Part shown: in pieces, positions 1 to 32,182 of the stretch | How the letters are laid out: each line of letters opens with the position of its first letter | How positions within the stretch are numbered: the stretch's first letter is position 1 | Assembly (NCBI GenBank): GCA_039590285.1 | Contig: JBDHFS010000009.1 | Coordinates: forward strand, 1-37,664 | Direction: 5' to 3' | Origin: Gemmatimonadota bacterium | GTDB taxonomy: Bacteria > Gemmatimonadota > Gemmatimonadetes > Palauibacterales > Palauibacteraceae | Length of the DNA: 37,664 bases | Made by a program: the position numbers and the translations under genes | Notes under the pieces: model-generated | Databases searched by the model: none | What the model was told of the DNA's origin: nothing | Seen by the model: only the letters and a program-made list of their open reading frames with translations

Positions 1-472
1 CACGCTTCAGGTACTCCGACACCGCGGTGACACCATCCGAGCACTCTACCGAGAACTCCGTGATGGCCCGGAAGGAGGGATCCTGCCCGACCAGGGTGAT
101 GTCGGTGCCGTGCAGGGTCGTAACCACTCGGAGATCCCGGCCCTCGCGCTCCAGCATCTGCTTCGCGACCCACGCCGCTTCTGCATGCGGGATGGCGTAA
201 TGAGCGTGCATGATATCGAGCTCGTGCTGCCGAGCCACTTCGTGCATACGCACGGCGAGGGCAAGAGAGTACGGGGGATACTCGAACAGCGGGTAGTGCG
301 GGACTTCCACCTCGTGGAAGAACAGGCGCTCATGGAACGAGGTGAGCCGAAAGGGCTGCGCGTACGTGATGAAATGCACCTCGTGCCCCTTCGCCGCGAG
401 CTCGATTCCGAGCTCGGTGGCCAGGGCGCCCGAGCCTCCGTAGGTCGGATAGCAGGCGATCCCGATCCTCAT
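1..472 (-). CDS. bshA: N-acetyl-alpha-D-glucosaminyl L-malate synthase BshA (GT4 glycosyltransferase), N-terminal part; runs off the window edge
   Basis: Not in the ORF track. Manual translation from ATG at 472 gives [37 protein letters not shown]...HAHYAIPHA...[14 protein letters not shown], matching BshA motifs (CYPTxGGSG, Hx[16 protein letters not shown]). GGAG lies just upstream. Confidence 0.92.
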
Positions 473-4230: not shown

Positions 4231-4333
4231 CAGCGCCAGACCGTCAGGTTGAGCTTGTCACCCGGTGCCCCCGGGGAAGCTCCGCACCGACGCACGCGCC
4301 GGATCACCGGAAGCCGCCGCACGCATGCCCGGG

Positions 4334-5230
4334 TCAGCGACGTCTCTTCTCCCTGCGGCGGGAGCTCTGCTCGATCTCCAGGAGCGCGGGAGACGCCACG
4401 AAGATCGAGGAGTACGTGCCTATCACTACTCCGAGGATGAGGACCAGCGCAAACGGGCGCACGACGGCGCCACCCAGGATGAACAGCGCCATGAGCGTGG
4501 CGAGCGTGGTGGCACTAGTCAGCACGGTCCGGGGCAGTGTCTCGTTGATGCTGGAGTCGAGGATGTCGATGTATTTGTCCTTGCGTCGCTTCTTGAGGTT
4601 CTCGCGGATGCGATCGAACACCACGATCGTGTCGTTCAACGAGTACCCCAGGATCGTCAGGATGGCGGCCACCGTTGCCAGCGTGATCTCGATATTCAGC
4701 ACCGAGATGAAGCCGAACGTGATCGTGATGTCGTGGAATGTGGCCACAATGGCCGCAATCCCGAACCGCCACTCGAAGCGGAAAGCCAGGTACACGAGTG
4801 TCAGCGCGAACGAGATCAGGATGGCGATGAGCGCCTTGCGCTGCAGCTCGGAGCCGACCTTCGGCCCCACCGCGTCAGTGCTCATGGTGAAGCCGTCAGC
4901 GCCATACGAATCGACCAGGACGGCGTAGACATCGTCGACCACGCCTTCGAAGGCCTGTGTGCGGATGAGGAAGTCGTTGGAGCCGCCGAACTGCTGGATC
5001 TGTGCGCCCTCCATGCCCGCTGCGCCCATGACCGAGCGAAGGTCGCCGACCGACGTCTCCCCAGTGAATTCCACCTGAAACTGCGTGCCGCCCGTGAAGT
5101 CCACTCCGTACCGTGGACCGCCGTGCAGAACCAGGGAAACCAGTCCTACCAGCAACATGGAGCCGGAGACGACGTACGCGTGCTTCCGCTGAGAGAGGAA
5201 GGCGTATTTGGCGTTTCGGAAGAATCTCAT
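4334..5230 (-). CDS. secF: Protein translocase subunit SecF
   Basis: GVDFTGG, VGPKVGSEL, RFEWRF, HD, GYSLNDTIVVFDRIRE, GTYSSIFVA; directly downstream of secD. Confidence 0.96.
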   Translation of the reverse strand: MRFFRNAKYAFLSQRKHAYVVSGSMLLVGLVSLVLHGGPRYGVDFTGGTQFQVEFTGETSVGDLRSVMGAAGMEGAQIQQFGGSNDFLIRTQAFEGVVDDVYAVLVDSYGADGFTMSTDAVGPKVGSELQRKALIAILISFALTLVYLAFRFEWRFGIAAIVATFHDITITFGFISVLNIEITLATVAAILTILGYSLNDTIVVFDRIRENLKKRRKDKYIDILDSSINETLPRTVLTSATTLATLMALFILGGAVVRPFALVLILGVVIGTYSSIFVASPALLEIEQSSRRREKRRR

Positions 5231-5242
5231 ATCAGGACCGTG

Positions 5243-6949: not shown

Positions 6950-7068
6950 CGATACGGGCCAGTCCTCTGCCTTGGTACTTCAAGTGCTTCGCCGGCCTCC
7001 TGCCGGCTCCGTTCACAAGCGGCGCAAGGTACGGAGGAAAGGCTCGATTGAAAACCCCGCGGGCGGGC

Positions 7069-7281
7069 TCAAACGTCGCTTCGAACCTCGCCCCGAAGGT
7101 GGATTCCCGTGTTGCACAGGATGTCCTCCATGAGGCACCAACCGGTGATCCCCGACTGGAGGAGGTTGAGGCCGACGAAGGCGGTGAACAACAGCCACCA
7201 GGGGCTGACCCACCACCCCAACGCCAGGCTGATGAGCGCGAATGTGCCCGCGATGATACGTATCTTCCTCTCCAGGCTCAT
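7069..7281 (-). CDS. DUF2892 / YgaP-like small membrane protein (70 aa)
   Basis: MSLERKIRIIAG...WWLLFTAFVGLNLLQSGITGWCLME matches the DUF2892 pattern (ER.IR, GLNL.QS..TGWC). Strong AGGAG SD before ATG 7281; the upstream extension in the ORF track is not credible. Confidence 0.88.
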   Translation of the reverse strand: MSLERKIRIIAGTFALISLALGWWVSPWWLLFTAFVGLNLLQSGITGWCLMEDILCNTGIHLRGEVRSDV

Positions 7282-7322
7282 GTAATCTTCTCCTTTTGTG
7301 ATTCCGGGTTTCGAGAGCCGTG

Positions 7323-7655
7323 TCATTCCTGCGCCCCGGCTGTCGGCGGCCGCTGGCATCCGCACGCGGACGCATCCTCCACTCCCAACAGGAAGGCTCG
7401 GATCGGATGTTTCGGGTCCTCGATGGCCGTACATGCCTGCACGCCGTCGAGGATGCGCCGGGCGGCGTATTCCTCCGCGAAGACCAGGATCAGCCCGGAG
7501 CGATACGGCGAGGCAGCCGAGTACCAGCCACCGACACCACCCGGTCCGTGTCCTTCCACAGCCAGCCTGCTGAACGTGCCCACCTCCAGCTCCGAGAGCA
7601 GCCCCTCGACGCACTTCTCGTCGCCCTCCAGGTAGGTCAGCATCACTAGTTTCAT
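7323..7655 (-). CDS. Small transporter-associated protein, possibly PII-like/ferredoxin fold (PG0541-like), 110 aa
   Basis: MKLVMLTY...VEGHG...W...ILVFAEE...PIRAFLLGVE resembles PII-like proteins found after RND permeases. GAGG upstream of ATG 7655. Fold assignment is inference. Confidence 0.6.
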   Translation of the reverse strand: MKLVMLTYLEGDEKCVEGLLSELEVGTFSRLAVEGHGPGGVGGWYSAASPYRSGLILVFAEEYAARRILDGVQACTAIEDPKHPIRAFLLGVEDASACGCQRPPTAGAQE

Positions 7656-11034: not shown

Positions 11035-12086
11035 TGATCACCATCCAGCCCGAAGGTCCAGCCGACGGTTTCTGTCCCACCGATGCCCGTGCCGTCGACC
11101 AGGGCAGGATCCGGTTCGCGCACGACCAGCGCCCCCTCGCGCAATCCGGCCAGCACTTCCACGGCGTCGTCCGCTCGGCGACCCGTCCGGACCCAGCGAA
11201 GCCGGAGGGCGTCACCGTCAACGACGTACAGGCCGGTCAGCTGGCCACGGTGGATCAGCGCGTCAGCCGGTACCCACGCGCTGGCGTCGCCGCGACCGGG
11301 AAGCTCCATGCGCGCGAACGTGCCGGCGACAGGAGGATCCTCTGCGTCATCGAGCATGGCCTCCACACGGAACCGGTGACTGGACAGCTCGATCACGGGC
11401 ACAACGAGGCTCACCGTGGCCGTCCAGCGCGCTTTGCCCTCGGGTCGCAGGACGGCGACCCGATCTCCGACCGAGACGAAATCAGCCAGCCCGGCTGGAA
11501 GGTCCGCTTCGACCTTGACACCGCTCGCACCAGAGATGACCAGCACGGGGCGGCCGGGGACGGCGAGATCGCCGGGATTGGCGAGTCGAGCCGAGACGTA
11601 GCCATCGAAAGGTGCGCGCAGCGTTACGTACTCTCGGGCGGCCTGCGCCTCGCTCAGGGCCGCATCGGCCGTCCTCAGAGCCGCTTCCGCCTGGTCGAGC
11701 TCTTGACGGGTCGCCGCGCCGTCGCGTTCGAGGTTGGAGAGACGCTCATATGTGCGGCGCGTCACCACGGTCTGGGCTTCCGCCCTCACCACCGCGGATT
11801 CCACACCCGCTGCTTCGAGCCGCACGAGGACCTGGCCGCGGCGCACGGTCGCGCCCGCGTCGACGAGTACGGCCTCGATGGTGCCGCTGGCGCGGGTCGC
11901 CAGATTGGCCGTCTCCCGGGCCACAATCCTCGCGGGAGCCTGGAATACGGTGGGGGCCGATCCGGCAGCGCTCACGGCCACCGTGCCCACATCCGGAAGG
12001 CTGTCCACCTCCCCGGGCTCTCCGCTGTCGCACGCGGTGGCCGTGGTAAGCGCCGTGACCACGGACAGCAACATGTATCGCTTCAT
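11031..12086 (-). CDS. RND periplasmic adaptor (membrane fusion protein), probable lipoprotein
   Basis: MKRYMLLSVVTALTTATAC signal with Cys; lipoyl-hairpin motifs (G.IEAVLVDAG..V..GQVL, LRAPFDG). ATGA overlaps with both tolC and the RND gene. Confidence 0.92.
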   Translation of the reverse strand: MKRYMLLSVVTALTTATACDSGEPGEVDSLPDVGTVAVSAAGSAPTVFQAPARIVARETANLATRASGTIEAVLVDAGATVRRGQVLVRLEAAGVESAVVRAEAQTVVTRRTYERLSNLERDGAATRQELDQAEAALRTADAALSEAQAAREYVTLRAPFDGYVSARLANPGDLAVPGRPVLVISGASGVKVEADLPAGLADFVSVGDRVAVLRPEGKARWTATVSLVVPVIELSSHRFRVEAMLDDAEDPPVAGTFARMELPGRGDASAWVPADALIHRGQLTGLYVVDGDALRLRWVRTGRRADDAVEVLAGLREGALVVREPDPALVDGTGIGGTETVGWTFGLDGDQ

Positions 12087-13483
12087 CGATCGTATCCATT
12101 CATGTGCAGGGTCGTGACAAACCGCAGCCGGGCTTCCGCCATTCGAAGCGCCGCTTGCCCGTCGATCGCGTGGCTCTCCGCCTGCGCTCTCCGTGACTCG
12201 GCTTGAAGAACATCCGTGGCCGTGGCCAGTCCCTCGTCGAATCGGCGGCCCATCAACTGCGCCCCGACCTCGGCCGCGACCTCTGCCGCCGAGGTCGCTT
12301 CGACAGCCTGTCGAGCCGAGATCACTCCGCTTCGCGCCTCCGAGAGCTCCGCTCGAGCTTCGCGGAGCGCCGTCTCGTACCTCGTCTCCGCGAGCGACCG
12401 CGCGGCGTCCGCACGTTGTTTGTCCTTCGAGCGGCTGAACCCGGAGAAAATGTTCCACTTCAGGCCGACGCCCACCGCCCAGTTATCACCATCTCGCCGG
12501 AAGGCTTCGGCGGCGTGGATTCCGTAGCTGCCGAACACACCGATCTCGGGCAGGTACGCGCGACCCGCCTGCTTCGAGCCGGCTTCGGCGGCGTCTCGTT
12601 CGCTCGAAAGAGCTATCAGATCAGCTCGGGTAGAGGGATCGAAGGTCTGGATCTCTTCGGGAACCGGCTGCGCGGGGGCTTCGATCGTGAGGGAGTCCGT
12701 CAGGATCGGCAGCTCCGCTCCATCTCCACCCAGGAACACGGCGAGGTTGCGGAGGGCGTTAGCCTCGCGCCGCTCAGCATCGACCCGGCGTGCGATGGAA
12801 AACGAGAAATCAGCCTCGGCCTGGAGCAGGTCGGCCCGGGTGAGAACACCCTCCTCTACCCTCCGCGCGAACACATCCCGGTTCGCGGCTGCCGCATCCT
12901 CGGCGCGGCGCGCGGCCTGAAGCTGGGCCCCGGCGCGTTGGGCCTCTCGGTACAGGAGCTCCGTACGCATCAGCGTTGCCTCGCGAGCTCGCGTCTCCGA
13001 CCACGCCGCGGCGTCCGCCTGGAGCGAGGCGGCCCCACGGGCCGTCCAGTCCGCGGGGCTGAACACCTTCCACTGGAGCGAGAAGCGGTTCACCCAGTCG
13101 TTGATCGGATCCGGGTTGTTGAGAGCGCCTACGTCGAAGTCCGGCTGGCTGAACGTTCCCTGACGCAGTCTAGTGCCGAACACGAATACGGGGTCGTTGG
13201 AGCGGATGAATCCGCTCTCGAAATCCAGCTTCGGCCAGTACACGGCCGAGCCGCCGTCCGCCGATGCTTCCGCCATGTCCCGTCTCGCACCCGCCATCCG
13301 GAGCTCTGCGTTCCCCGACAGGGCCTCCGCGATCGCCCCCTCGAGGCTCAGCCGTCTTCCCCCGGTAGTATCCTGGGCCGCCAGACCGTGCTCCGAGGCC
13401 GGCCCGGCCAGCATGAGAGCCCCGGCCAGGAAGGCTGTTCTCCAGAACTCGCGGGACCCTGCAATCCCTTGCATCGTTCGCAT
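12083..13483 (-). CDS. TolC family outer-membrane efflux protein
   Basis: Signal peptide, LSLEGAIAEAL..N, YWPKL/YLPEI repeat, helical Ala-rich segments, RFDEG...DVLQAE; upstream of MFP and RND genes. Confidence 0.9.
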   Translation of the reverse strand: MRTMQGIAGSREFWRTAFLAGALMLAGPASEHGLAAQDTTGGRRLSLEGAIAEALSGNAELRMAGARRDMAEASADGGSAVYWPKLDFESGFIRSNDPVFVFGTRLRQGTFSQPDFDVGALNNPDPINDWVNRFSLQWKVFSPADWTARGAASLQADAAAWSETRAREATLMRTELLYREAQRAGAQLQAARRAEDAAAANRDVFARRVEEGVLTRADLLQAEADFSFSIARRVDAERREANALRNLAVFLGGDGAELPILTDSLTIEAPAQPVPEEIQTFDPSTRADLIALSSERDAAEAGSKQAGRAYLPEIGVFGSYGIHAAEAFRRDGDNWAVGVGLKWNIFSGFSRSKDKQRADAARSLAETRYETALREARAELSEARSGVISARQAVEATSAAEVAAEVGAQLMGRRFDEGLATATDVLQAESRRAQAESHAIDGQAALRMAEARLRFVTTLHMNGYDR

Positions 13484-14162: not shown

Positions 14163-14558
14163 ATGGGACGGCACACCGACTGTCTGATGGCGTTGCGGGG
14201 CGCGAGCCTGGTCTGTCTTCTCAGCCTCGCCATCGGCTCCGCGTGCACGCCGGATGCTCCACAGGGGGGTCTTCCGACGCACCCGTCAGACCGATTCTCG
14301 GTATCGCTGGAGTGGGATGCCCCGGATGTCGATGAAATGGGCCGACCACTCACGGACCTGGCAGGCTACCGTCTCTACTTTTCCCTCACGAGCCCACCCG
14401 ACGGTCCCGACGGAAACCGCATCGAGGTGGGGACCGATACCCGTTTCACGGTTACAGGTCTCGCTGCGGGTGAGTACTACTTCGGAGTCACCGCCCTTGA
14501 CGCCGCGGGAAACGAGAGTGGACTCTCCGAGCTGCTGATGTTCGAGGTGGGGCGGTGA
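14163..14558 (+). CDS. Small lipoprotein with a single fibronectin type III-like domain (cassette 1)
   Basis: Hydrophobic signal ending LAIGSAC; SVSLEWDAP..D..GRPLTDLAGYRLY...FTVTGL..GEYYFGVTALD..GNES FN3 pattern. GGAGG upstream. Confidence 0.85.
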   Translation: MGRHTDCLMALRGASLVCLLSLAIGSACTPDAPQGGLPTHPSDRFSVSLEWDAPDVDEMGRPLTDLAGYRLYFSLTSPPDGPDGNRIEVGTDTRFTVTGLAAGEYYFGVTALDAAGNESGLSELLMFEVGR

Positions 14559-16345
14559 GGGGACCGCGGGGACGGGTGTCGGTTCTGTCGTGGGCCGCGG
14601 TCAGCGTCCTGATGCTCTTCGCGTGGCCGCGCCCGTCGCTCGGCCAGCAGGCCATGCTCGTACCCTCGCCAACCAACCTCAGCGCAGGGGCAGTAGACAA
14701 CTCGCGTATCGACCTGTCATGGAGGGCGGCCTCGTCCGGAAATATCGCGACCTACCGCGTCTACTACGACGACGACCGCTTCATAGCGAGCGTTTCCGGG
14801 TCCACGACTTCGTATTCAGACACCGGTCTGGAGCCGTGGACGGTCTATCGATATTACGTGACGGCGGTCCAACAGAACGGTAACGAGAGCGGTCCGAGCA
14901 ATGTGGCCTCGGCACGTACACTGGACGGGACCCCGCCGTCCGCTCCAAGGGATCTGCAGGGTCAGCCGATCAGCGACTCCGAGGTCTCTCTGGTGTGGAA
15001 CGGGGCCAGCGACCCCGAGTCGGGTGTCGCCGGGTACGTCATCTTCAGGGATGGACGCGAGATCGACCGAACCTCGAGCCCCGGCTTCGGGGACTCGGGA
15101 CTGGAGGCTGACCGTCAGTACTCCTACGAGGTTACAGCGGTCAACGGAGAGGGATTGGAGGGGGCAGCGGCCGGCCCGGTTCAGGTCCGAACGCTCTCGG
15201 ACGAGGCGCCGGAACCACCGACGGAAGTCCGGGCGACGGCCGTGGAGTCGAACGCCGTGGAATTGGAGTGGAACGCGCCGCCGGGAGACGAAGATATCGA
15301 CGGGTACCGGGTCTATAGGGACGGAGAATCAGTGGGAACGACATCCCAGCGTCGTCATCGGGATTCTGGTTTGCAACCGTTCACGACGTACCTGTACCAC
15401 GTGACATCGATCGGAGAGGATGGTGATGAGAGCGCGCCCAGCTCCCCGCTTGAGGTCATGACCCTGGACGGTTCGGCACCGACGAAGCCCGAAGGCCTGA
15501 TCGCGAGGGCCGTGGGCAGCGAGCGAATCGACCTGGCGTGGAACGCGGCCCAGGACCCGGAGTCCGGGATAGCGTTCTACCGGATCATGCGGAATGGTGA
15601 CGAGGTCGGCACGACGGAGGGCACGACGTATCAGGACTTCGGACTCGAATCGGGCACCACGTACGAGTACCGGGTCTCAGCGGTCAACGGGAGCGGCCTG
15701 GAGGGCGCCGCCAGCGAGCCCGCCGGGGCGACGACCCTGGACGGGAGCGGCCCGACGAAGCCGACGGACCTCACGGCCACGGCGATCGGGACGGATCGAA
15801 TCGAGCTGAGCTGGTCGCCATCGACCGACCCCGAGACGGGCGTCGCCCTGTACCGTGTCTTTCGCGACGGGGCCGAGGTGGCCGCAGCCACGAGTGCGGC
15901 CTATACGGATTCAGGCCTGGCGCCGAATACGGAATACGAGTATCGGGTCTCCGCGGTCAACGGGGAGGGACTCGAAAGCGACCTCAGCGAACCCGCCTCA
16001 GCCGTCACACTGGACGAGGGCGGTCCACCGGCGCCCGCCGATCTACTGGCACAGGCCGTTGGCCCCGATCAGGTAAACCTGACCTGGACAGCACCGGACG
16101 CGACGGACACCGAGATCGTCAGCTACAACGTGTATCGTGACGGCAGTTTCGTCGGGAATGTCGTCGCCACGGTCTTCGCCGATGCCGGCCTCTCGCCCGG
16201 GACGACGTATCGTTACGCGGTGGCCAGCGTGAACGATGAGGGCGAGGAGGGCGAACGCAGCGGCGAAGCACTGGCCACGACGTTCCCGGCCGATGACCTG
16301 ATCCCCCCGGCTCCACCGACGAGACTGAGGGTCGTGGGGCCGTAG
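14555..16345 (+). CDS. Secreted protein with six tandem FN3 domains and a conserved C-terminal PPAPPTRLRVV tail
   Basis: Signal peptide; six roughly 90-aa repeats (P..L.A......I.L.W...Y.V.R.G...Y.D.GL.P.T.Y.Y.V.AV..G.E); no catalytic domain seen; GTGA overlap with the upstream lipoprotein gene. Confidence 0.9.
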   Translation: MRGPRGRVSVLSWAAVSVLMLFAWPRPSLGQQAMLVPSPTNLSAGAVDNSRIDLSWRAASSGNIATYRVYYDDDRFIASVSGSTTSYSDTGLEPWTVYRYYVTAVQQNGNESGPSNVASARTLDGTPPSAPRDLQGQPISDSEVSLVWNGASDPESGVAGYVIFRDGREIDRTSSPGFGDSGLEADRQYSYEVTAVNGEGLEGAAAGPVQVRTLSDEAPEPPTEVRATAVESNAVELEWNAPPGDEDIDGYRVYRDGESVGTTSQRRHRDSGLQPFTTYLYHVTSIGEDGDESAPSSPLEVMTLDGSAPTKPEGLIARAVGSERIDLAWNAAQDPESGIAFYRIMRNGDEVGTTEGTTYQDFGLESGTTYEYRVSAVNGSGLEGAASEPAGATTLDGSGPTKPTDLTATAIGTDRIELSWSPSTDPETGVALYRVFRDGAEVAAATSAAYTDSGLAPNTEYEYRVSAVNGEGLESDLSEPASAVTLDEGGPPAPADLLAQAVGPDQVNLTWTAPDATDTEIVSYNVYRDGSFVGNVVATVFADAGLSPGTTYRYAVASVNDEGEEGERSGEALATTFPADDLIPPAPPTRLRVVGP

Positions 16346-16407
16346 AAGAGAGCGCCGTCAGACCTTTCCTCCCTGAAGGCCTTTCAGGTTAGCCCCCCAC
16401 TGCTGCG

Positions 16408-16423
16408 TGGCAGGAACCTTGCT
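16408..16423 (+). promoter_or_regulatory. Putative sigma54 (-24/-12) promoter for cassette 2
   Basis: TGGCAGGAACCTTGCT versus consensus TGGCACG-N4-TTGCW: one mismatch, exact GG-N10-GC spacing, intergenic, about 117 nt before ATG 16540. Confidence 0.65.
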
Positions 16424-16539
16424 TCCATTGGTACCCGTTCCTGCCGGCCCCCGGTCGCGGCCAAGGCCTCGACTGGCGGCGATTGCGGCGAAATAGGGGC
16501 GCCCGGCGTGTCGCAGCGGGCAAACGAAGTACGGCTTCC

Positions 16540-16926
16540 ATGTGGCATGACCGCAACAGCAGGCTCAGAGGGACCGCCTTCGCCGGAGCCATCGCGCTGA
16601 TTCTGGCATCGGGATGCACCCCGGACGGACCGGGCGACGGGGTGCCTACGCATCCGAGCGACAGGTACTCGATAACGCTCGAGTGGGATGCGCCCACGAC
16701 CGATGCCGTGGGCCGGCCGCTGGACGACCTGGCCGGCTATCGCCTCTACTATTCCGAGGATTCAGCGCCCGAGAGCGGCAGCGAGATGATCGACGTCGGG
16801 GACGTGACGCGCTTCACCGTGGAAGGGCTCGACGCCGGCACTTATGTGTTCGCCGTGACGGCCCTGGATGAGGACGGGAACGAAAGCGACTTCTCCGATC
16901 CGCTGCCGGTGGAGGTCGGACCGTGA
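16540..16926 (+). CDS. Small FN3 lipoprotein (cassette 2), paralog of 14163..14558
   Basis: MWHDRNSRLRG...ALILASGC lipobox; shares CTPD.P..G.PTHPSDR.S..LEWDAP..D..GRPL.DLAGYRLY...GNES with the first copy. Confidence 0.87.
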   Translation: MWHDRNSRLRGTAFAGAIALILASGCTPDGPGDGVPTHPSDRYSITLEWDAPTTDAVGRPLDDLAGYRLYYSEDSAPESGSEMIDVGDVTRFTVEGLDAGTYVFAVTALDEDGNESDFSDPLPVEVGP

Positions 16927-19259
16927 GCGGGCCACATGACGGACTCGTGAGGACCTCGCGCTTCCGGTTCGCGGTCGTGCTCCTGGCGTCGACCGCGATG
17001 GGGCTCGGGAGCCCGAATGCAGCGCATGCCCAGCAGCCTCCGACGAACGTCACGGCGACCGCCGCCAGTTCCTCGCGAATCGACCTCGCGTGGACGGCAT
17101 CCTCGAGCACCTTCGTGTCGGGATACCGCATCTACTACACGAACGGCACGCTGCTCGGAGAGGTTGGACCGTCCACGCTCTCTTTCTCGGACACCGGCCT
17201 GACAGCCATGACGCAGTACGACTACTACGTCACGATGTTCAACTTCGCCGGCGAGAGCGGCCCGAGCAACACGGCCTCCGCCGTCACGCTCGACCCCACC
17301 CCGCCTTCCACGCCGGCCAACCTCCAGGGCACAGCGGTCAGCACGACGGAAATCGATCTCTCGTGGAATGCAGCTTCGGATCCGGAGACCGGAATCCAGG
17401 ATTACGTCGTGTACAGGGATGGGCTGGAGGTAGCCCGCACGGGGACGAACCTGAGCTACCGGGATTCGGGCCTCACTCCTGATACCCAGTACCAGTACAG
17501 GGTCTCGGCCGTGAACGGTGACGCAATCGAGGGCGCTACCAGCAGTCCTGTGAACGTGAGGACCCTCCCGCCGGAGCCACCCCCGCCGCCCACGAGCCTG
17601 ACGGCCACGACGGTGAGCGATTCGGAGATCGACCTGTCGTGGACAGCCCCCAGCACAGGTGACGTGATCGGCTACCGTGTGTACAGAAACGGCAACCCGG
17701 TGGACAACACCGCGGGGACATCCTACCGGGACTCGGGCCTGCAAGGATTCACGACTTACACCTACACGGTGACGGCGCTCGACGGCGAGGGCCTGGAAAG
17801 CGAGCCAAGCCAACCGGCGCAGGCGACCACCCTGGACGGTACGCCTCCGACTCAACCCCAGAGCCTCTCTGCCACGGCCTCGGGCGCGACCACCATACAG
17901 CTGTCGTGGTCCCCGTCATCCGACCCCGAGACCGGTGTGGCCGTGTACGTCATCTACCGTGGGGGCGTTGAGATCACCCAGACCACCGGAACCTCGTACC
18001 TGGATACAGGCCTCAGTCCGGCCACGACTTATGGGTACCGTGTCTCGGCGGTCAACGGACAGGGACTGGAAGGCCAACGGAGCGCCCAGGCCTCCGCGAC
18101 GACGTTCGACGCAACGGGCCCCACGACGCCGGAGAACCTGACGGCCACGGCCGTGGGCACGGATCGCATCGATCTCGACTGGTCGCCGTCGAGCGACCCG
18201 GAGACGGGCATCGCCGGGTATCGGATCTACCGTAATGGAGTGCTGGTGGCCACCAGCAGCCAGAGTTCGTACAGCGACAGCGGACTCGCTCCGGCGACCG
18301 AGTACGTGTACCAGGTTTCGGCGGTAAATGGTCAGGGTCTCGAGAGCGATCGCAGCGATTCGGTGTCCGTCACAACGGGTGACGCCACGGCTCCCACAAC
18401 ACCACAGGACCTGGGCGCCGTGGCAGTCGGGACGGAGAGAATCGATCTCTCCTGGACGGCTTCACAGGATCCGGAGACGGGCGTCGCGGTGTATCGAGTC
18501 TTCCGGGACGGATCGGAGATCGGCACCACTACCCAGACCGTGTACCAGGACGACGGCCTCGCACCGGCGACGACGTACGAGTACAACGTGGTGGCGGTGA
18601 ACGGCGACGGGCTGGAAAGCGAAGCGAGCAACACGGCATCGGCGACGACCTTGGATGGAACAGGTCCATCGACTCCGACCGATCTCTCCGCGACGGCGGC
18701 CGGAACGGACCGCATCGACCTGACCTGGGCGGCTGCGGAGGACCCCGAAACCGGCATCGCTCTTTACAGGATCTTCCGGGACGGAGCCCTGATCGGGACG
18801 ACAGATCAGACCAACTACCAGGACACAGGCCTCAGCCCGGCGACGACGTACGAGTATCGTGTGTCGGCGGTGAACGGCGAGGGCCTGGAGAGCGGTCTCA
18901 GCGAGCCGGCCTCGGCCACCACGCTGGACGGTACGGGACCCACCGCCCCGACGGATCTGACGGCGGAGCCCGTCAGCCAGACGCAGATCAACCTCGCCTG
19001 GACAGCCTCCGAGGACCCAGAGAGCGGCGTGGTCAGCTATAATGTGTACCGCGACAACGCCTTGGTCGGAAGCGTGCCGGGAACGTCGTTCGCCGACACG
19101 GGGCTCGATGTGGGGACGTCCTACAACTACTCGGTCTCGGCCGTCAACGGTGAAGGGATCGAGGGAGACAGGAGCGACGGCGTGACGGCTTCCACATTCC
19201 CATCGGAAGATCAGATACCGCCGGCACCGCCCACGGGTCTCAGGGTGGTGCAGCCATGA
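16923..19259 (+). CDS. Secreted protein with eight tandem FN3 domains and a conserved C-terminal PPAPPTGLRVV tail
   Basis: Signal peptide ending AAHA-QQ; eight FN3 repeats, six with a DPE[T/S]G loop; GTGA overlap with the upstream lipoprotein gene. Confidence 0.9.
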   Translation: MSGPHDGLVRTSRFRFAVVLLASTAMGLGSPNAAHAQQPPTNVTATAASSSRIDLAWTASSSTFVSGYRIYYTNGTLLGEVGPSTLSFSDTGLTAMTQYDYYVTMFNFAGESGPSNTASAVTLDPTPPSTPANLQGTAVSTTEIDLSWNAASDPETGIQDYVVYRDGLEVARTGTNLSYRDSGLTPDTQYQYRVSAVNGDAIEGATSSPVNVRTLPPEPPPPPTSLTATTVSDSEIDLSWTAPSTGDVIGYRVYRNGNPVDNTAGTSYRDSGLQGFTTYTYTVTALDGEGLESEPSQPAQATTLDGTPPTQPQSLSATASGATTIQLSWSPSSDPETGVAVYVIYRGGVEITQTTGTSYLDTGLSPATTYGYRVSAVNGQGLEGQRSAQASATTFDATGPTTPENLTATAVGTDRIDLDWSPSSDPETGIAGYRIYRNGVLVATSSQSSYSDSGLAPATEYVYQVSAVNGQGLESDRSDSVSVTTGDATAPTTPQDLGAVAVGTERIDLSWTASQDPETGVAVYRVFRDGSEIGTTTQTVYQDDGLAPATTYEYNVVAVNGDGLESEASNTASATTLDGTGPSTPTDLSATAAGTDRIDLTWAAAEDPETGIALYRIFRDGALIGTTDQTNYQDTGLSPATTYEYRVSAVNGEGLESGLSEPASATTLDGTGPTAPTDLTAEPVSQTQINLAWTASEDPESGVVSYNVYRDNALVGSVPGTSFADTGLDVGTSYNYSVSAVNGEGIEGDRSDGVTASTFPSEDQIPPAPPTGLRVVQP

Positions 19260-21367
19260 GCCGGAGACAGCGCGGGCCCTGGTCGGCAGGAATAGGCCAC
19301 GCGGAGCAACTGCTGTTTTGCGCTTCGCTGGCGGCCGGGCTGGTATTCGCGGTCCCCGACCCGGCCTCGGCCCAGGACACGGGTCTCAGCAAGAGCGAGC
19401 TCGTCCGTCTCGTGGTGTCGAGCACGACCCCGGATGAGAAGGTGCAGACGGTCAGCCGGCGCTGTCTCAGCTTCGTTCCGACGGAGGGCGATTGGAGTGA
19501 TCTGGCCAACCTCGGCGCCAGCCCCGAGCTGGTGGCCGCCGCGCAGGAGTGCGCCCGCGCCGCTCAGGCCGTGCGGATCCGCCTCACCGCCACGGATATC
19601 ACGGTTCGCGCCGGAGACTCCACGGGTGTAACGGTCACACTCTCCCAAGCCGGCGATCCTCTTCAGGGTCAGACCGTCACGCTGTCGGGGTCTGGTGGCG
19701 CGGGCGCCGGTGTGCGCCTTTCGCGCACGACAGACGGAAGGGGGCGTGCAAACTTCCGCCTTCCGGCCGGCACGGTGCTGGGCGCGGCCCGCTATACGGT
19801 TGCCGCTTCCAACACATCGCTGGATGGACCGACCCGGATCACAGTCAGGACGGCGGCCGCCGCTCCGGCGCGAGCGGTTCCCGAGCCAGCGTCGCTCGAG
19901 CTGGACGCCGGCGGTGACCCGCCGGAAGTGAGCGTCTCCGTCGAGGACCGCTTCGGCAATCCGGTTTCCGGCGCGGACCTGGATCTCGCCGCGGGATCCG
20001 GGACCGCGCCCGTGATCGCCTCCGCTACGACAGACGCGACAGGTGCAGCAAGTCTGACCCTGGCAGACGGCGCAATGCCCGAGGAAGACGCGACCTGGGA
20101 GCTCCGGAGCGGCGACGCCGTCATCGCCACGTTGCCGGTGCGGATTCGAGACGCCGCCCCGGCGCCCGCTGCCGAAGTGGGCGTGGCCGGAGCCGCCGCG
20201 GCGGCGGGCGGAGATCGCCCCCCAGGCGAGTCCGCCGTCGACGCAGCGATCAGAGACGGCCGGGACAGCCTCGAGGACGAAGACTACGTCGCGGCGGAGA
20301 CCCTGTTCCGGGATGCCCTTCGCCAATCGCCACGGCGAAGCGACGCACAGAAAGGGCTCGCGGCGTCACTGCTGGCGCAGAATCGGATAGAAGAAGCCAT
20401 CACGTGGTATGAAGTGGCCACCCGGCAGGCTCCCGAGGATGCGGACGCCTGGTCGGGTCTCGGGCAGGCGTACGCTGCCGCGGGCCGGAGGGACGATGCC
20501 GCCGCGGCGCTCGCCCGCGCGCAGCAGATCGATCCGACGCGCGAGGAGCTGACCACCGAGATCGCCGATCTTGGCCGACCGCCTGGATCCGCCACAGGCG
20601 CCGCCTGGGGAGGCGGAACCTACGACAACGCCGAGTCGGGTGGAATCCGCCGGGCCGAGATCGATGTGCGTTTCTCCCCGGCACTGGCCGCGCGGGTCGG
20701 CTGGGATCGCTCGCTGGCTCCGCACAGCCCCGAGCTTGTCAGAGGACCGGACGAATGGGACTCCTGGTTCGCCGGAGCGTCCTTCTCGTACGGGACCGGC
20801 GGGCGGCTGGAGACGGCTCTCGACTTTGGCCAGCGAAGCCAGGGATTCGGAGAGCTCGCCGAGGGATCGGAGCTCAAGCAGAACGTCTATCGACTCACTC
20901 AGACGATCCGGTTCTCGGACGACCCGAGCGGCTCGATGATCAAGATCGGCGGATACCTGGGGCGTTGGTTCGACCGGGACGACTGGGTCGTGTTCAGCCG
21001 ATTCAAGGCCCCCATCGGGGGAGATCTCAGCTTCCTGGCTTCCGGCAGCTACGGCGAGACGATCGGAACGAACTGGGTGGAGACCGGCAGGCACGCCGAC
21101 AAGGACGGCCGGGTATACGCCGGCGTAGCCTGGGAGAACGAAAAAGGCCTCGCTTTGCAGCCGGTCATAGGCGTGGGGCGGATCGATAGTGAGCGATCGG
21201 ACGAGCTCACGGGGACCCTGCTCGATCTTCTGCTCGAGGGAGCGGTTCCCGTCACGCGGGGAGCTGACATCCGGCTCTTCTTCAGGCACCAGAGACCGCC
21301 CGGAAGCGAGGCGTTCACGGTCATCGCCCTCGGGTTCGGCCTGAAAGTGGGCTGGGCTGGAGGCTGA
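19256..21367 (+). CDS. Exported multidomain protein: small helical N-domain, two Ig-like domains, TPR repeats and a probable C-terminal outer-membrane beta-barrel
   Basis: Signal ending ASA-QD; Big_1-like motifs (TTDGRGRANF, VEDRFGNPVSG, TTDATGAASL); TPRs (AETLFRDAL..SP...DAQKGLA; AP.DADAWSGLGQAY); last roughly 260 aa has alternating amphipathic strands ending FGLKVGW. ATGA overlap with the FN3 gene. Confidence 0.72.
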   Translation: MSRRQRGPWSAGIGHAEQLLFCASLAAGLVFAVPDPASAQDTGLSKSELVRLVVSSTTPDEKVQTVSRRCLSFVPTEGDWSDLANLGASPELVAAAQECARAAQAVRIRLTATDITVRAGDSTGVTVTLSQAGDPLQGQTVTLSGSGGAGAGVRLSRTTDGRGRANFRLPAGTVLGAARYTVAASNTSLDGPTRITVRTAAAAPARAVPEPASLELDAGGDPPEVSVSVEDRFGNPVSGADLDLAAGSGTAPVIASATTDATGAASLTLADGAMPEEDATWELRSGDAVIATLPVRIRDAAPAPAAEVGVAGAAAAAGGDRPPGESAVDAAIRDGRDSLEDEDYVAAETLFRDALRQSPRRSDAQKGLAASLLAQNRIEEAITWYEVATRQAPEDADAWSGLGQAYAAAGRRDDAAAALARAQQIDPTREELTTEIADLGRPPGSATGAAWGGGTYDNAESGGIRRAEIDVRFSPALAARVGWDRSLAPHSPELVRGPDEWDSWFAGASFSYGTGGRLETALDFGQRSQGFGELAEGSELKQNVYRLTQTIRFSDDPSGSMIKIGGYLGRWFDRDDWVVFSRFKAPIGGDLSFLASGSYGETIGTNWVETGRHADKDGRVYAGVAWENEKGLALQPVIGVGRIDSERSDELTGTLLDLLLEGAVPVTRGADIRLFFRHQRPPGSEAFTVIALGFGLKVGWAGG

Positions 21368-21572
21368 ACCGCGGCGGCCGCCAGGCCTCCCGTGCAGTCG
21401 AAAGCGCAGTCTCACAGGTGGAACCTCTGCCCGGAACCCGGTTCGCTAAACCCCCGGGGCAAGCCGGGTGTTCTTCGGCTACATTGCCTCGGCTCGATGC
21501 GAGCCGTTCTGCCCACCGCCTGCCGCGGTGAGCGGTGTTCATCACAGCCATCCCACAACTCGGCGAGGAAAC

Positions 21573-24001
21573 ATGAGAAGTCTTCCTTCGTTGTTGGTCA
21601 TTATCCTGGCCGGCCTCCTGGCCGCCGGCTGCGCGTCGGCCCGCTCACAGGAGGCGCCTGGCTCGGGCCCGAAGCCCTCGGATGACGAGCCCAGGAGCTA
21701 TTCCGAGCTGATCACCGAAGAGGCGGTGTCGGACTCCGGCCTGTTCCTGGTCCACAACATCAAGGACACGCTGTACTACGAGATTCCTCTCCATCTGCTC
21801 GACCGGGAGATGTTGCTGGTATCCAGGCGGGCGCGGACGGCGCAGGACCTGGGGTACGGCGGGATGAAGAACAACACGCAGTCCGTGCGGTGGCAGAAGA
21901 AGCAGGACAAGGTGCTGCTCCGAATCGTGTCGTACGAGAACGTCGCGGCCGATTCGCTTCCCATCTACGAGGCCGTGAAGAACTCGAACTTCGAACCGAT
22001 CGTCGCCGCCTTCGACATCGAGGCGTGGAACCCCGACAGCTCCGCCGTGCTGATCGAGACGACGAAGCTGTTCACCGAGGACGTGCCGATCCTGGGCCTT
22101 CCGAGCTACATGCGCGAAAGCTATGAAGTTTCCAGCCTGGACAAGGACCGATCGTACATCGAGTGGACGAAGAGCTTCCCGGAGAATATCGAGGTGCGCC
22201 ACGTCCTCACGTACAACGCCAAGGAACCGCCCTCCAATTCGTCCACCGGAAGCATCTCCGTGGAGATGAACCAGTCGATGGTGCTGCTTCCGGAAGTACC
22301 GATGCAACCGCGCCTGTTCGACGAACGCGTCGGCTTCTTCAGTGTGGACCAGGTAGACTACGGACTTTCGGACCACAAGACGGTCGAGCGCACCTACATC
22401 ACGCGCTACCGCCTGGAGCCGGCCGATACGGCGGCGTTCCTGAGGGGTGAGCTCGTGGATCCCGTCGAGCCGATCGTCTACTGGATCGATCCGGCGACAC
22501 CGGAGAAGTGGCGGCCCTACCTCAAAGCGGGAGTGGAAGACTGGCAGCAGGCGTTCGAGCACGCCGGTTTCCGGAACGCGATCATCGCCATGGACCCGCC
22601 GACACCGGAGGAGGACCCGGAATTCAGTCCCGAGGACATACGCTACTCGGTCATCCGGTGGTTCCCGTCCGAGGTACAGAACGCCTTCGGACCGCATGTA
22701 CACGATCCGCGCTCGGGCGAGATCCTGGAGAGTGACATCGGCTGGTTTCACAACGTCGCGAACCTGCTGCGAAACTGGTACCTGATCCAGACGGCCGCCG
22801 CCAATCCGGAGGCGCGCGCCGTCAAGTTCGACGACGACGTGATGGGCAAGCTGATCCGGTTCGTATCGGCTCACGAGGTGGGACACACGCTGGGTCTCCC
22901 GCACAACATGAAGGCGAGCTCGGCCTATCCCGTCGACTCGCTGCGGGCTCCCGGGTTCGTGTGCCGGATGGGTGTCGCCCCCTCGATCATGGATTACGCG
23001 CGCTTCAACTACGTGGCGCAGCCCGAAGACGACGGGGCGTGCTTCGATCCGCGGGTGGGACCCTACGATGACTATTCGATCATGTGGGGTTACCGACCCA
23101 TCCTCGGAGCCGACTCGCCCGACGCCGAGAAGGAGACCCTGAACGCCTGGATTCTCGAGCGGGAGGACAATCCCACCTACTGGTTCGGCGATCCGAGCGC
23201 CGTCGATCGGAAGCCGGGGAGCTCGGAATCGCGAATCTGCAGCGAATCCTGCCGAGCCTCATGGACTGGACGTACGAAGAGGGTGAGGACTGGTCGGAGC
23301 TGGAGGAGCTGTACAGCCAGGTCACGGCCCAGTGGAATCGCTACATGGGTCACGTGGTCGCCAATATCGGTGGCGTCGTGCGCACGCGCAGGCGGCAGGG
23401 ACAGGAAGGCGTCGTTTACGAGCCGGTGCCCGTCGAGAATCAGAGACGGGCCATGCAGTTCGTTTCCGGCGAGGCGTTCACGCCGCCTACCTGGATGATC
23501 AACGAGGAGATCCTCGGCCGCATCGAGAACGTCGGCACGGTCGAACGAATGCGGCGTCTGCAGGTTGGAGTGTTGAACAACGTACTCCAGGCGGGCCGTA
23601 TGCAACGACTCATCGAGGCCGAGGCACGGTTCGGAGACGCCACCTACGGTCTGACCGAGATGACGGCCGATGTCCGGCGCGCCGTCTGGAGCGAGCTGGG
23701 CACCGGAGAGTCGATCGACACGTACCGACGGAATCTCCAGCGCGGCTATCTGGAGCGAATGGATGAGCTGATGAACGGTGACGGCCCCGCCCCTCCAACG
23801 TTCAACTTCCCGGGTCTCGACGAGTATTTCACCAACGTCAACCTGTCGCAGTCCGATATCCGGGCCGTGGTACGCGGCGAGCTGGAGACTCTGAGCCGAG
23901 AGATCCGGAATCGGCTGGCTTCGGGTCCCGACCGCATGACTCGACTGCACCTTCAGGATGCGCTGGCCCGCATCGATGACATCCTGAACCCCGAGGAGTA
24001 A
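21573..24001 (+). pseudogene. Zinc-dependent metzincin metalloprotease lipoprotein (DUF5117/DUF5118/DUF4953-type), split by a frameshift near 23208
   Basis: Lipobox LAAGC after GAGG SD; HEVGHTLGLPH zinc motif and SIMDY Met-turn in the first frame. Plausible protein sequence switches frame after FGDPSAVD and continues EAGELGIANLQRI...RRNLQRGYL to TAA at 24001. May be an assembly error rather than a true pseudogene. Confidence 0.8.
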
Positions 24002-27467: not shown

Positions 27468-29786
27468 TCAGTTCGGCAGGTTCATCCTTTCAAGCAACGC
27501 CGCGTAGCGCGGGTCACCCCGGAGAGAGGCGGATGCCTTGCCCACTCGAATAAAGGGCAGCCAGCCGTGCGGTGGCTCGAACGCGAGCAACTCGAACGCT
27601 TCGTCGAGCTCCCCGAGGGCCGCGTGCACCCTTGCACGATTCAGGGCGGTCCAGCCGTTCAGCGGCTCCGCCTCGACCTCGGCGAGCACCGCTCTCGCTT
27701 TCGCCTCCCGGCCGGCCCGGGCATACGTTAGGGCGAGCCCCCCTCGCCAGGCCGGATTCACCGCAACCACCGCCTCGTGCGCTTCGATTGCCTCGTCGTA
27801 CCGGCCGGCGTCGAGCAGCGCGTTGCCGAGGACCAGCTGACCGATCCAGATGCCGGGCCATCGCTCGAGGACCTCGTGCGCCTGGGAGAGCGCCTGATCG
27901 TGGCGTCCCGTTCGGCGGTACATGCCCGACAGCCAACCTGACATCAACGGTGTCAACGGGTCGAGCTCCGCGGCCAGCTCATGCTCCTCCACCGCCTCGT
28001 CCCAACGCCCGAACAGGTACAGGTACCATGCGTAGTGGTAGTGGTTCATGGGCATGCTCGGGTTGAGCGCGTTGGCCCGCTCGAACTCGCGCTCCGCACC
28101 CTCCCAGTCCCACTCACCGTATAGCATGATGTCGGCCGACGCCGCGTGCGCTTCCGCCAGGTTCGGGTCCAGCCCGAGGGCCCTGTCAGTCGCGGCGCGA
28201 GCGAGGCGCCAGACACCTTCCGGGGGCGCCGGGCCATGCCCGAGCGTGACGTACCCGCCCGCGAGCCCCGCCCACGCGAGAGCGTCGCCCGGGTCCGCCT
28301 CCACGGCCGCGTTCAGGTATCGCATGCCCTCCTGGAAGTCCTCGGCCGTACCCTTGTTCAGAAAGTACATCCCTCGCAGATAGGCTTCGTATGTCTCCGG
28401 GTTCACGGGTCGTGTGCCGGTGAGTCGGGCTTCCTCTTCGGGTGTCAGGTCGATGTCGAGCGCGGAGGCGATGCCCCTCGCTACCTCGCCGTGCAGAGCC
28501 ATCACCTCGCTCGCATCCCTCTCGTACGCCTGCGCCCACAGCTGCCGCTCCTCGGGCACCGCCTGAATCAGGTTCACTTGGAGGCGGATGGCGTCACCCT
28601 CACGGACCGCCGTGACATCGACGAGGTAGTCCACGCCCAGCTCGGCAGCCATCTCCGAGATCGACTTCTCCGAACCCGCGTACCGAAGGACGGACCGCCG
28701 GGAGATCGTGCGCAGGCCACCGATTCGACCGAGTTGTCCGATCAGGGCCTGGTGCGCCCCGGCCACGAAGGGCTCCTGCCCGGAATCGCCGGACACGTTC
28801 TCCACAGGAAGCACCGCGACGGGAACGAAGCTCGCCGCACCAGCCTCGGGCGTGCCGCGCGTGATAAACCAGGCTCCCGCCGCAACGACTAGAGCCGCTG
28901 CCGCGATCGCCAGAAGGCGTCTGCCCGCCCCCCGCGACTTCAGCTTCTCGGCCTCCTCAGGGGCGGCCAGGGCTCGATCCAGGTCTTCCGCCGTGGCGTA
29001 CCGGTCCGCCTGCTGCGGGGCCATCGCCTTGGCGATCACTCCCACGACGTCCGCAGACACCTGCTTGCGGTGCCTTCTGAGATCCGGAGTCACGTGTGAC
29101 GACTTCGCGGCGAGAATCGAATGCGGCGTCGGCCCGTCGAACGGCGCCTCTCCCGCCAGCATTTCCCAGAGGACGCAACCCACCGCGTACAGATCCGCCC
29201 GGCCGTCCACCTCACCGCCCGCCGCCTGCTCGGGGCTCATGTACTTCGGCGTACCCACGGCCAATCCCGTGGCCGTCGCTTCCCCTCCGCCAGCCACCCC
29301 TACGGCCCTCGCCACGCCGAAGTCCGCGATCACTGCGTGCCCTTCCTCGAAGAGAATATTCGACGGTTTGATGTCCCGGTGGATTACACCCTTCGTGTGT
29401 GCGTACGCCAGGGCATCGACTATTTCCCTGGCGATTCCCAGCGCTTCATCCACGGGCAGCCGACCCTCACGCTGTATCCTCTGTTTGAGGGTCTCCCCCT
29501 CCACGAACGGCATCACGTAGTACAGCAGTCCGTCCGCCTCGCCCGAGTCGATCAGGGTGAGAATCCTGGGGTGGGTGAGTCCGGCCACGATCTGGATCTC
29601 GCGCAGGAATCGCTCGTCACCCAGGGTCGCCGCGAGCTCCGGGTGAAGGACCTTGACCGCGACCTCTCGGTTGAGCTTCAGATCCGTCGCCAGATAGACC
29701 GTGGCCATACCGCCACGACCCAGCTCGCGCTCGATCGCGTAGCGGTCGGCGAGGGCTTCACGGACACGGTCCATCGAGTTCGACAT
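27468..29786 (-). CDS. Hanks-type Ser/Thr protein kinase with TM segment, TolB-like domain and TPR repeats
   Basis: LGRGGMATVY, VAVK, HRDIKPSN, DFG, GTPKYMSPEQ; hydrophobic segment; VAVLP.EN.SGD domain; EAYLRG followed by TPRs. AGGAG SD. Confidence 0.95.
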   Translation of the reverse strand: MSNSMDRVREALADRYAIERELGRGGMATVYLATDLKLNREVAVKVLHPELAATLGDERFLREIQIVAGLTHPRILTLIDSGEADGLLYYVMPFVEGETLKQRIQREGRLPVDEALGIAREIVDALAYAHTKGVIHRDIKPSNILFEEGHAVIADFGVARAVGVAGGGEATATGLAVGTPKYMSPEQAAGGEVDGRADLYAVGCVLWEMLAGEAPFDGPTPHSILAAKSSHVTPDLRRHRKQVSADVVGVIAKAMAPQQADRYATAEDLDRALAAPEEAEKLKSRGAGRRLLAIAAAALVVAAGAWFITRGTPEAGAASFVPVAVLPVENVSGDSGQEPFVAGAHQALIGQLGRIGGLRTISRRSVLRYAGSEKSISEMAAELGVDYLVDVTAVREGDAIRLQVNLIQAVPEERQLWAQAYERDASEVMALHGEVARGIASALDIDLTPEEEARLTGTRPVNPETYEAYLRGMYFLNKGTAEDFQEGMRYLNAAVEADPGDALAWAGLAGGYVTLGHGPAPPEGVWRLARAATDRALGLDPNLAEAHAASADIMLYGEWDWEGAEREFERANALNPSMPMNHYHYAWYLYLFGRWDEAVEEHELAAELDPLTPLMSGWLSGMYRRTGRHDQALSQAHEVLERWPGIWIGQLVLGNALLDAGRYDEAIEAHEAVVAVNPAWRGGLALTYARAGREAKARAVLAEVEAEPLNGWTALNRARVHAALGELDEAFELLAFEPPHGWLPFIRVGKASASLRGDPRYAALLERMNLPN

Positions 29787-29798
29787 GGTCCCGCTCCT

Positions 29799-32138: not shown

Positions 32139-32182
32139 GGTATGTGCTCCGCCTCTGAGAAATGCGCTGATACAGCCCATCG

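Follow-up and report, generated by a model that had tools for sequence, protein, structure and literature searches.

A lipoprotein lacking FN3 strand A and a conserved cargo tail suggest an undescribed donor-strand tether in Gemmatimonadota

The 37,664-nucleotide (nt) stretch of Gemmatimonadota DNA analysed here (the window, contig C9 of its genome) contains, at positions 14163–21367, two successive gene pairs followed by the gene for an outer-membrane protein. Each pair encodes a small lipoprotein, here called the anchor, and a large secreted partner, here called the cargo. The lipoprotein carries a single fibronectin type III (FN3) domain modelled with strands B to G and no strand A, and the cargo ends in a conserved tail that resembles the linker and strand A with which FN3 domains begin. 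This complementarity is the strongest feature of the locus and was missed in the initial annotation, which was made from the DNA letters alone. The pair suggests an undescribed plug-and-socket mode of tethering proteins to the cell envelope. In the best explanation that we can offer, to which we give an even chance of being right, lipoprotein and cargo form a donor-strand pair that tethers rods or enzymes by lipid, with the third type of protein acting as an accessory for placement at the outer membrane or surface.

The first pair is composed of lipoprotein A (131 residues, 14163–14558, on the forward strand like all five genes) and cargo A (596 residues, 14555–16345), and the second of lipoprotein B (16483–16926) and cargo B (778 residues, 16923–19259). 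A 703-residue Ig–TPR–barrel protein is encoded directly downstream (19256–21367). Lipoprotein B is 147 residues long when read from a TTG codon at 16483, but its start is probably the ATG at 16540, which gives the 128 residues of database entry P0104. Stop and start codons overlap by 4 nt at 14555 (GTGA, lipoprotein A and cargo A), 16923 (GTGA, lipoprotein B and cargo B) and 19256 (ATGA, cargo B and the barrel gene). Pfam identifies six FN3 stretches in cargo A and eight in cargo B, with a repeat period of 89–92 residues (PF00041, 226.9 and 286.5 bits), and one FN3 domain in each lipoprotein. The match of lipoprotein B reaches 32.2 bits against the Pfam cut-off of 25, and that of lipoprotein A, confined to profile positions 9–76, lies just below it at 22 bits. 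Lipoprotein A begins with a signal peptide and lipobox cysteine, continues with a Pro/Gly-rich tether of about 20 residues and enters the FN3 fold at strand B.

The two small proteins carry the lipoboxes ...AIGSAC and ...ILASGC. In the three large proteins a hydrophobic core comes after an N-region with positive charge, as in ordinary signal peptides, and there is no lipobox; these export signals were assigned by eye and from hydropathy, without a dedicated predictor. Pfam and NCBIfam matches to the five products are limited to FN3, Ig and TPR families, and no catalytic domain was found in them. The gene order, repeat numbers, overlaps, export signals and absence of a recognisable catalytic domain described in the initial annotation all reappear in this analysis. 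Because the same order recurs in other genomes and genera, the arrangement is not due to chance.

The two cargos end in closely related 16-residue segments, D-L-I-P-P-A-P-P-T-R-L-R-V-V-G-P in cargo A (16295–16342) and D-Q-I-P-P-A-P-P-T-G-L-R-V-V-Q-P in cargo B (19209–19256), which are the proposed donor strands. The C-terminal motif shared by the cargos is D-x-[IVT]-P-P-A-P-P-x-G-L-R-V-V, with 1 to 3 residues left before the stop codon. When the last 110 residues of the cargos from 19 complete pairs, representing two families, are aligned, the D, PP, P, L and R positions are invariant in all 19. The strict motif is present in 17 of 18 complete open reading frames (ORFs) downstream of lipoproteins, and the 18th deviates by one Ser. 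Among ORF ends of the window's own genome there are four relaxed matches, of which the two strict ones are the two cargo genes. A back-translated DNA pattern of the tail matched 13 sites in five genomes, whereas its reversed control matched four. Cargo gene ends account for ten of the 13 sites, and two of the other three were inspected and do not lie at gene ends beside a lipoprotein (the third is G007:C17). A lipoprotein gene adjoins every tail-bearing gene examined. We also considered a PEP-CTERM signal or another of sortase type and discarded this reading, since no hydrophobic segment follows the motif.

The tail pattern corresponds to the linker and strand A at the start of each internal FN3 repeat of the cargos. 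In a hidden Markov model (HMM) built from the 14 FN3 repeats of the locus itself, the tails align to positions 1–16 and most lipoproteins only from positions 11–20 onward. What the tail resembles is thus precisely the part missing from the lipoprotein. All 19 lipoproteins carry the lipobox cysteine, and in every mature sequence a stretch of about 20 residues rich in Pro and Gly leads from it straight into the strand-B motif, which has a conserved Trp at its end. In the AlphaFold2 model of the mature lipoprotein (19-row alignment; mean predicted local distance difference test score (pLDDT) 76.8, predicted template modelling score (pTM) 0.63), residues 1–17 form a low-confidence coil, with block means of 49 and 64, and are followed by six strands. 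Its structural matches are FN3 domains, the best with Z 10.9 and a root-mean-square deviation (rmsd) of 1.7 over 80 residues. These matches begin at model residue 14–17 in most rows, and the first 13–17 residues of single-domain FN3 references are left unmatched (e.g. 3teu_A 14..92 and 8oq9_A 18..102). The nearest complete FN3 domains of the lipoprotein subtype are located at the C-terminus of proteins of about 430–540 residues and contain P-P-x-G-V-x-I-x-G directly before the strand-B motif.

We propose that the locus represents two copies of an anchor-and-cargo module, with a third in the genome, followed by the gene for a Slam-like outer-membrane protein. The anchor would be a lipoprotein with a flexible Pro/Gly tether and one FN3 domain having strands B to G and no strand A. 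The cargo would be a Sec-exported protein: a rod of six or eight FN3 domains here, and 3 to 10 FN3 domains or a DUF4185-like enzyme elsewhere. After export, the cargo tail would dock along strand B of the lipoprotein FN3 domain and supply the edge strand that is missing there (donor-strand complementation), and the cargo would hang by its C-terminus from the lipid anchor with no covalent bond. The 703-residue accessory, a 14-stranded barrel preceded by periplasmic Ig and TPR domains, would help to place or hold such complexes at the outer membrane or cell surface. Gene pairing, conservation and placing of the tail, the six-strand lipoprotein model and the barrel fold are what this analysis shows, whereas binding, its geometry, the cellular location and the part played by the barrel are inferred. 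A broader version of this proposal, which we advance tentatively, envisions a natural split-domain plug-and-socket anchor, with FN3 strand A on the C-terminus of any cargo and strands B–G on the lipoprotein. It would serve as a general, modular lipid anchor for rods and enzymes in a lineage of Gemmatimonadota, coupled in many genomes to a Slam-like protein, not detectably related to Slam in sequence and outside the Proteobacteria, that carries the complexes to the surface.

Binding between tail and lipoprotein was modelled in one complex prediction, which combined the lipoprotein alignment with that of the cargos' last 110 residues. The pair scored 0.56 and the best of three controls 0.02, a result classed as weak support: 58 of 80 solved complexes reach the mark used, as do 2 of 110 mismatched pairs, and those reaching it at a score of 0.60 or under are seven of the 80 solved complexes and both of the passing mismatched pairs. 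Contact agreement in the runs was at least 91% and partner pLDDT at least 78. Several points weigh against a donor-strand pair. The complex prediction is weak and no interface was reported from it, leaving the strand-A geometry inferred, and the tail matches to the FN3 HMM are not significant alone (E 0.25 to 4.8). The P-x-x-P...L-x-V pattern is generic to FN3 A strands, and Ig-like domains can stay stable without strand A. The lipoprotein model is only moderately confident, with 19 sequences behind it. Finally, no cargo–lipoprotein fusion was found among the three longer proteins that contain the lipoprotein domain. Each of these was rejected as a fusion, one being an over-extended start, one a probable chimera and one a two-domain lipoprotein.

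The tail might instead be a sorting or docking peptide read by the TPR domain or another export factor, with the lipoprotein assisting assembly in the periplasm. Binding of extended C-terminal peptides is common among TPR domains, and the proline-rich character of the tail, its position at the very C-terminus and the weakness of the lipoprotein–cargo prediction would all be consistent with such a role. The tail also occurs, however, in genomes that yielded no member of the barrel family, and the constant features of tail-bearing genes are an adjoining lipoprotein gene and, in that lipoprotein, the absence of the very strand that the tail mimics. We consider a docking peptide quite unlikely for these reasons.

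The association between lipoprotein and cargo was examined in 61 related genomes, 30 of which contain a lipoprotein match at E up to 1e-5. In 24 of these the matches are strong (E up to 1.6e-18) and located in small frames. The remaining six have only weak matches (E 4e-7 to 6e-11) within frames of 482–681 residues, and those inspected (G030 and G034, with like frames in G009 and G035) are C-terminal FN3 domains of other proteins. The examined loci contain 38 distinct lipoprotein genes, 36 of them with downstream DNA. A same-strand ORF follows in 36/36, and its start codon begins 1 nt before the lipoprotein stop codon (a 4-nt overlap) in 35/36. This constancy bears out the earlier proposal of an obligatory pairing between the small lipoprotein and its large partner, and the co-occurrence and synteny of the three gene types suggested at that time as a check were found in several genera. 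The view that the lipoprotein had been duplicated along with its partner also holds: other genomes contain distinct orthologues of the A-type and of the B-type cassette, and a third lipoprotein copy is present in the window's own genome.

This third copy (contig C311, L008, 2883–3269, forward strand) encodes 128 residues that are 62% identical to lipoprotein B. Only 32 nt separate it from the contig end, so its cargo gene is missing from the assembly, which is 86% complete and divided among 418 contigs. Relatives of this cassette type have a 310-residue cargo with three FN3 domains and no adjoining barrel gene.

Partners among the relatives range from 237 to 953 residues, with about 3 to 10 FN3 domains. 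The initial annotation regarded the large partner as a rod, which fails in three loci. In these, from two sister-family genomes, the partner is a DUF4185-like protein (E 9e-10, 38.7 bits; cut-off 39.5 bits). A domain of about 355 residues is common to the three cargos (L035 and, from one complete genome, L032 and L033); it is close to DUF4185, a family that includes glycoside hydrolases. One form has no extra domain, another has one additional FN3 domain and the third has two FN3 domains and a further domain. The L033 cargo gene adjoins a gene for a family-2 glycosyltransferase. The DUF4185-like cargos are 57% and 63% identical over the enzyme part and differ downstream, each with the tail at the very end; in pairwise comparisons the tail aligns as a local match of its own at the extreme C-terminus, irrespective of the sequence that precedes it. 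As judged from these alignments, the tail is modular and is kept behind an enzyme as well as behind an FN3 rod.

These comparisons also bear on whether the genes have any physical link between their products. They could be neighbouring secreted FN3 genes in which the tail is what remains of an FN3 repeat after truncation, as FN3 repeats expand and contract readily and the cargos vary greatly in length. Six invariant positions in 19/19 pairs from two families are not expected of a remnant, however, and the tail persists behind a non-FN3 domain, always ends 1–3 residues past the strand and accompanies a nearly universal 4-nt overlap. We regard a remnant as very improbable.

The distribution of the lipoprotein family looks narrow. 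A protein with 75% identity is present in the record of Candidatus Benthicola marisminoris. A search for related loci with one protein returned 15 loci from Gemmatimonadota, one match from Balneolales and one from Spirochaetota; the latter two were rejected as pairs, being generic FN3 domains in unrelated proteins. In a collection of 5.8 billion proteins the family comprises 384 clusters at E up to 1e-10, with only ‘fibronectin type III domain-containing protein’ or ‘hypothetical protein’ as database names. A phylum survey of an even sample of 301 genomes found the lipoprotein in seven at E up to 1e-12, four full-length and three partial in larger frames; 16 candidates were scored per genome, so absences from this survey are weak. 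Within the genomes searched, occurrence of the system seems limited to one order of Gemmatimonadota. We found no description of the lipoprotein–cargo pair in the literature, in agreement with the original impression that this is not a named system.

The 703-residue protein is composed of a signal peptide, a segment containing two cysteines, two Big_1 stretches, several TPR families at residues 335–437 and a C-terminal region of about 260 residues that has no Pfam family. The two-cysteine segment, which precedes the Ig domains, is conserved in the whole barrel family (window 19370–19570, residues about 40–105). Even at E up to 10, Pfam places no family on the barrel domain and none on the N-terminal 115 residues. 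The initial annotation had proposed that the C-terminal domain is a membrane barrel, and an AlphaFold2 model of residues 420–703 (54 sequences; pLDDT 93.6, pTM 0.86) agrees. The domain, spanning residues about 444–703 (20585–21364), is confidently predicted to form an outer-membrane barrel of 14 strands behind the TPR region, the layout described for Slam. The barrel family is small: a collection of 1.84 billion proteins contains 53 representatives at E up to 1e-3 (52 by a word-based search), which are named only as TPR or hypothetical proteins. A sequence search of the PDB with the family returned TPR proteins only and was uninformative on the barrel.

The top Foldseek match of the barrel is OmpG (E 3e-7, TM-score about 0.6). 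A wide structural search places it closest to the 14-stranded barrels of FadL/TodX, CymA, OmpG, PorV and Bacteroidota BamG, with Z 19.1 to 16.8 and rmsd 3.0–3.9 over 220–246 residues. Individual values are 19.1 for a FadL homologue, 18.2 for FadL, 18.1 for CymA, 17.9 for the 14-strand subunit of the Bacteroidota BAM complex, 17.6 for OmpG and 17.1 for PorV. Identity to these proteins is 5–10%, with no family match, and to judge from its length the short-loop barrel of about 260 residues would have no room for a FadL-type hatch domain. The TPR-porins PgaA, BcsC and PelB resemble the 703-residue protein in having TPRs followed by a C-terminal barrel, but their barrels score lower (Z 14.5, 12.6 and 11.8, versus 17–19 for the 14-stranded barrels) and the locus contains no polysaccharide synthase genes. 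NCBIfam matches to these proteins involve the TPR part only, with 23 and 22 bits for PgaA models (cut-offs 367 and 1043) and 21 bits for BcsC (cut-off 858). Autotransporter (type Va) barrels are also below the 14-stranded barrels (Z 11.4–14.2); they have 12 strands, compared with 14 in the model, and no autotransporter family is matched in Pfam.

A barrel gene directly follows the pair in eight loci from four genera (the window, L029, L031, L034, L037, L041, L043 and L073), and in a fifth genus (L070) it follows an FN3 gene cut by the contig end. The other eight of 16 loci have no barrel after the pair (L030, L032, L033, L035, L036, L038, L040 and L042). The barrel domain was found in 26 of the 61 genomes: 21 have both a strong lipoprotein match and the barrel, three the lipoprotein only (G022, G037 and G040), five the barrel only (G003, G021, G025, G034 and G036) and 32 neither, counts that describe this sample of related and often incomplete genomes rather than a statistical test. 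Among 24 sister-family genomes, the barrel family was found in none, including the two with pairs (97% and 93% complete). A second lineage of the barrel family, 33–37% identical, adjoins unrelated genes and has a copy on contig C105 of the window's own genome. A tree built from 18 barrel domains is compatible with one division into FN3-linked and JAB-linked members, but the support is weak (48/89, 52% of bootstrap trees).

These observations weigh against the barrel component of our proposal and against the initial view of a self-contained display module in which the Ig–TPR–barrel protein is the required translocon, as in Slam/type XI secretion, and the lipoprotein an anchor or chaperone. Such a translocon would account for the TPR and 14-stranded barrel layout, which matches that described for Slam (PMC5449769), for the overlap of the barrel gene start with the cargo stop, for the eight loci with adjacent barrel genes and for rods of 6–10 FN3 domains, which would be long for a periplasm. 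An obligatory translocon is nevertheless difficult to reconcile with pairs that have no barrel beside them, with a sister family in which pairs occur and no barrel was found, with five genomes that carry the barrel family and no lipoprotein, and with a paralogue lineage kept beside a JAB–transmembrane protein and a mutagenesis cassette; the absence of a DUF560 match adds to this. We consider it unlikely. Since it is absent from half of the loci, was not found in the sister family and has a paralogue beside unrelated genes, the barrel protein is best described as an accessory: a recurrent but dispensable partner of the pairs.

The resemblance to Slam drawn in the initial annotation is upheld for domain layout and not for sequence. 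According to the Slam paper, Slams have N-terminal TPRs and a 14-stranded barrel, are found in Proteobacteria and in 185 of 353 cases are encoded beside lipoprotein genes (PMC5449769); its supplementary homologue list, which lay outside the search, might hold non-proteobacterial entries. The 703-residue protein likewise has TPRs before a C-terminal 14-stranded barrel, and its gene adjoins genes for lipobox-containing lipoproteins. It differs in having no match to DUF560/SlipAM (PF04575), two extra Big_1 Ig domains and the N-terminal two-cysteine segment. Its neighbours are single-FN3 lipoproteins rather than TbpB-like proteins with an 8-stranded barrel, it does not always accompany the pairs, and its host belongs to the Gemmatimonadota and not to the Proteobacteria in which that paper places Slams (PMC5449769). 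When the whole genome was scanned with PF04575, the single match fell below threshold and lay on another contig, not at the 703-residue gene. The structural match lists of the barrel include no solved Slam structure. A SlipAM-containing cluster in the Atlas at rank 13 (score 0.93) is a lead only.

The barrel paralogue on C105 (805 residues; L009, 9569–14301, reverse strand) lies in a neighbourhood that is conserved across genera (L064–L072). Upstream are genes for an SH3 protein and, directly upstream and overlapping the barrel start, a protein that combines a JAB-like domain with a single membrane helix and a two-cysteine C-terminal domain; imuA–imuB–dnaE2 are located downstream. At L009 11968–13180 (reverse strand) the JAB–transmembrane gene is split into ORFs 12185–13180 and 11968–12315, whereas its relatives have a single ORF of about 420 residues. 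This neighbourhood may encode another envelope system that uses the same family of barrels.

The donor-strand pair proposed here resembles the pilus systems in which this mechanism operates. In chaperone–usher assembly, an incomplete Ig-like fold is completed by a strand of another polypeptide. Genes for a PapD-like chaperone or an usher are absent from the present locus, the strand that is missing here is A rather than G, and the acceptor is a lipoprotein. In the type V pili of Bacteroidota (FimA/Mfa1, with anchors FimB/Mfa2), a lipid-anchored Ig-like subunit reportedly has an open groove that takes a C-terminal donor strand. The donor-strand principle on a lipid-anchored Ig-like acceptor is already known from type V pili, and the proposed insertion of the cargo tail into a lipid-anchored acceptor would be common to both systems. 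The features that define the type V family are absent from this locus: only the anchor is a lipoprotein, where in type V pili every subunit is a lipoprotein precursor, the cargos are diverse and have ordinary signal peptides without a lipobox, and there is no polymerising subunit and no fimbrillin (FimA/Mfa) fold or Pfam match. The lipoprotein groove would be open as encoded, so that no protease step is implied, unlike in type V pili. A pilus-like polymer, in which the tail of one cargo complements the next subunit and the lipoprotein is the terminal anchor, would have a precedent in the donor-strand assembly on lipoprotein anchors known for type V pili. However, Pfam matches no fimbrillin family here, and the strand-A motif is normal in the cargo FN3 domains, the first one included, so that they present no open groove. 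We consider polymerisation highly unlikely.

The surroundings of the locus are ordinary chromosomal genes. An RND efflux operon and an ArsR-type regulator are located upstream and a Met-zincin gene downstream. A scan of the locus for promoters and terminators found nothing above shuffled sequences; a terminator-like hairpin 3′ of the barrel gene (21453–21468, forward strand) is a consensus match only and does not exceed the shuffles. The Met-zincin gene (DUF5118/DUF5117/DUF4953; 21468–24001, forward strand) is divided between two overlapping frames, 21468–23498 and 23084–24001. The DUF4953 profile runs from position 131 in the first frame to 150 in the second, indicating a frameshift near 23200 and thus a pseudogene or an assembly error. 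Elsewhere in the window, neighbouring ORFs of 928 and 195 residues with overlapping stop and start codons (4265–7635, forward strand) have no Pfam match at E up to 1e-5, and two tandem Ser/Thr protein kinases of 772 and 793 residues (27468–32180, reverse strand) each contain a C-terminal TPR region.

The barrel protein provides a second example of the TPR and 14-strand layout beside lipoprotein genes, without a Slam sequence match, and bears on whether this layout arose more than once for the handling of surface lipoproteins. If the proposed pairing is correct, it would constitute a compact, non-covalent anchoring device that accepts unrelated cargos, and a small peptide-and-domain pair that can be tested directly in vitro. 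Donor-strand complementation would then extend from pilus assembly to general protein tethering. The Gemmatimonadota are mostly uncultured, and the pair bears on how diderm bacteria beyond the Proteobacteria and Bacteroidota attach proteins to their surface.

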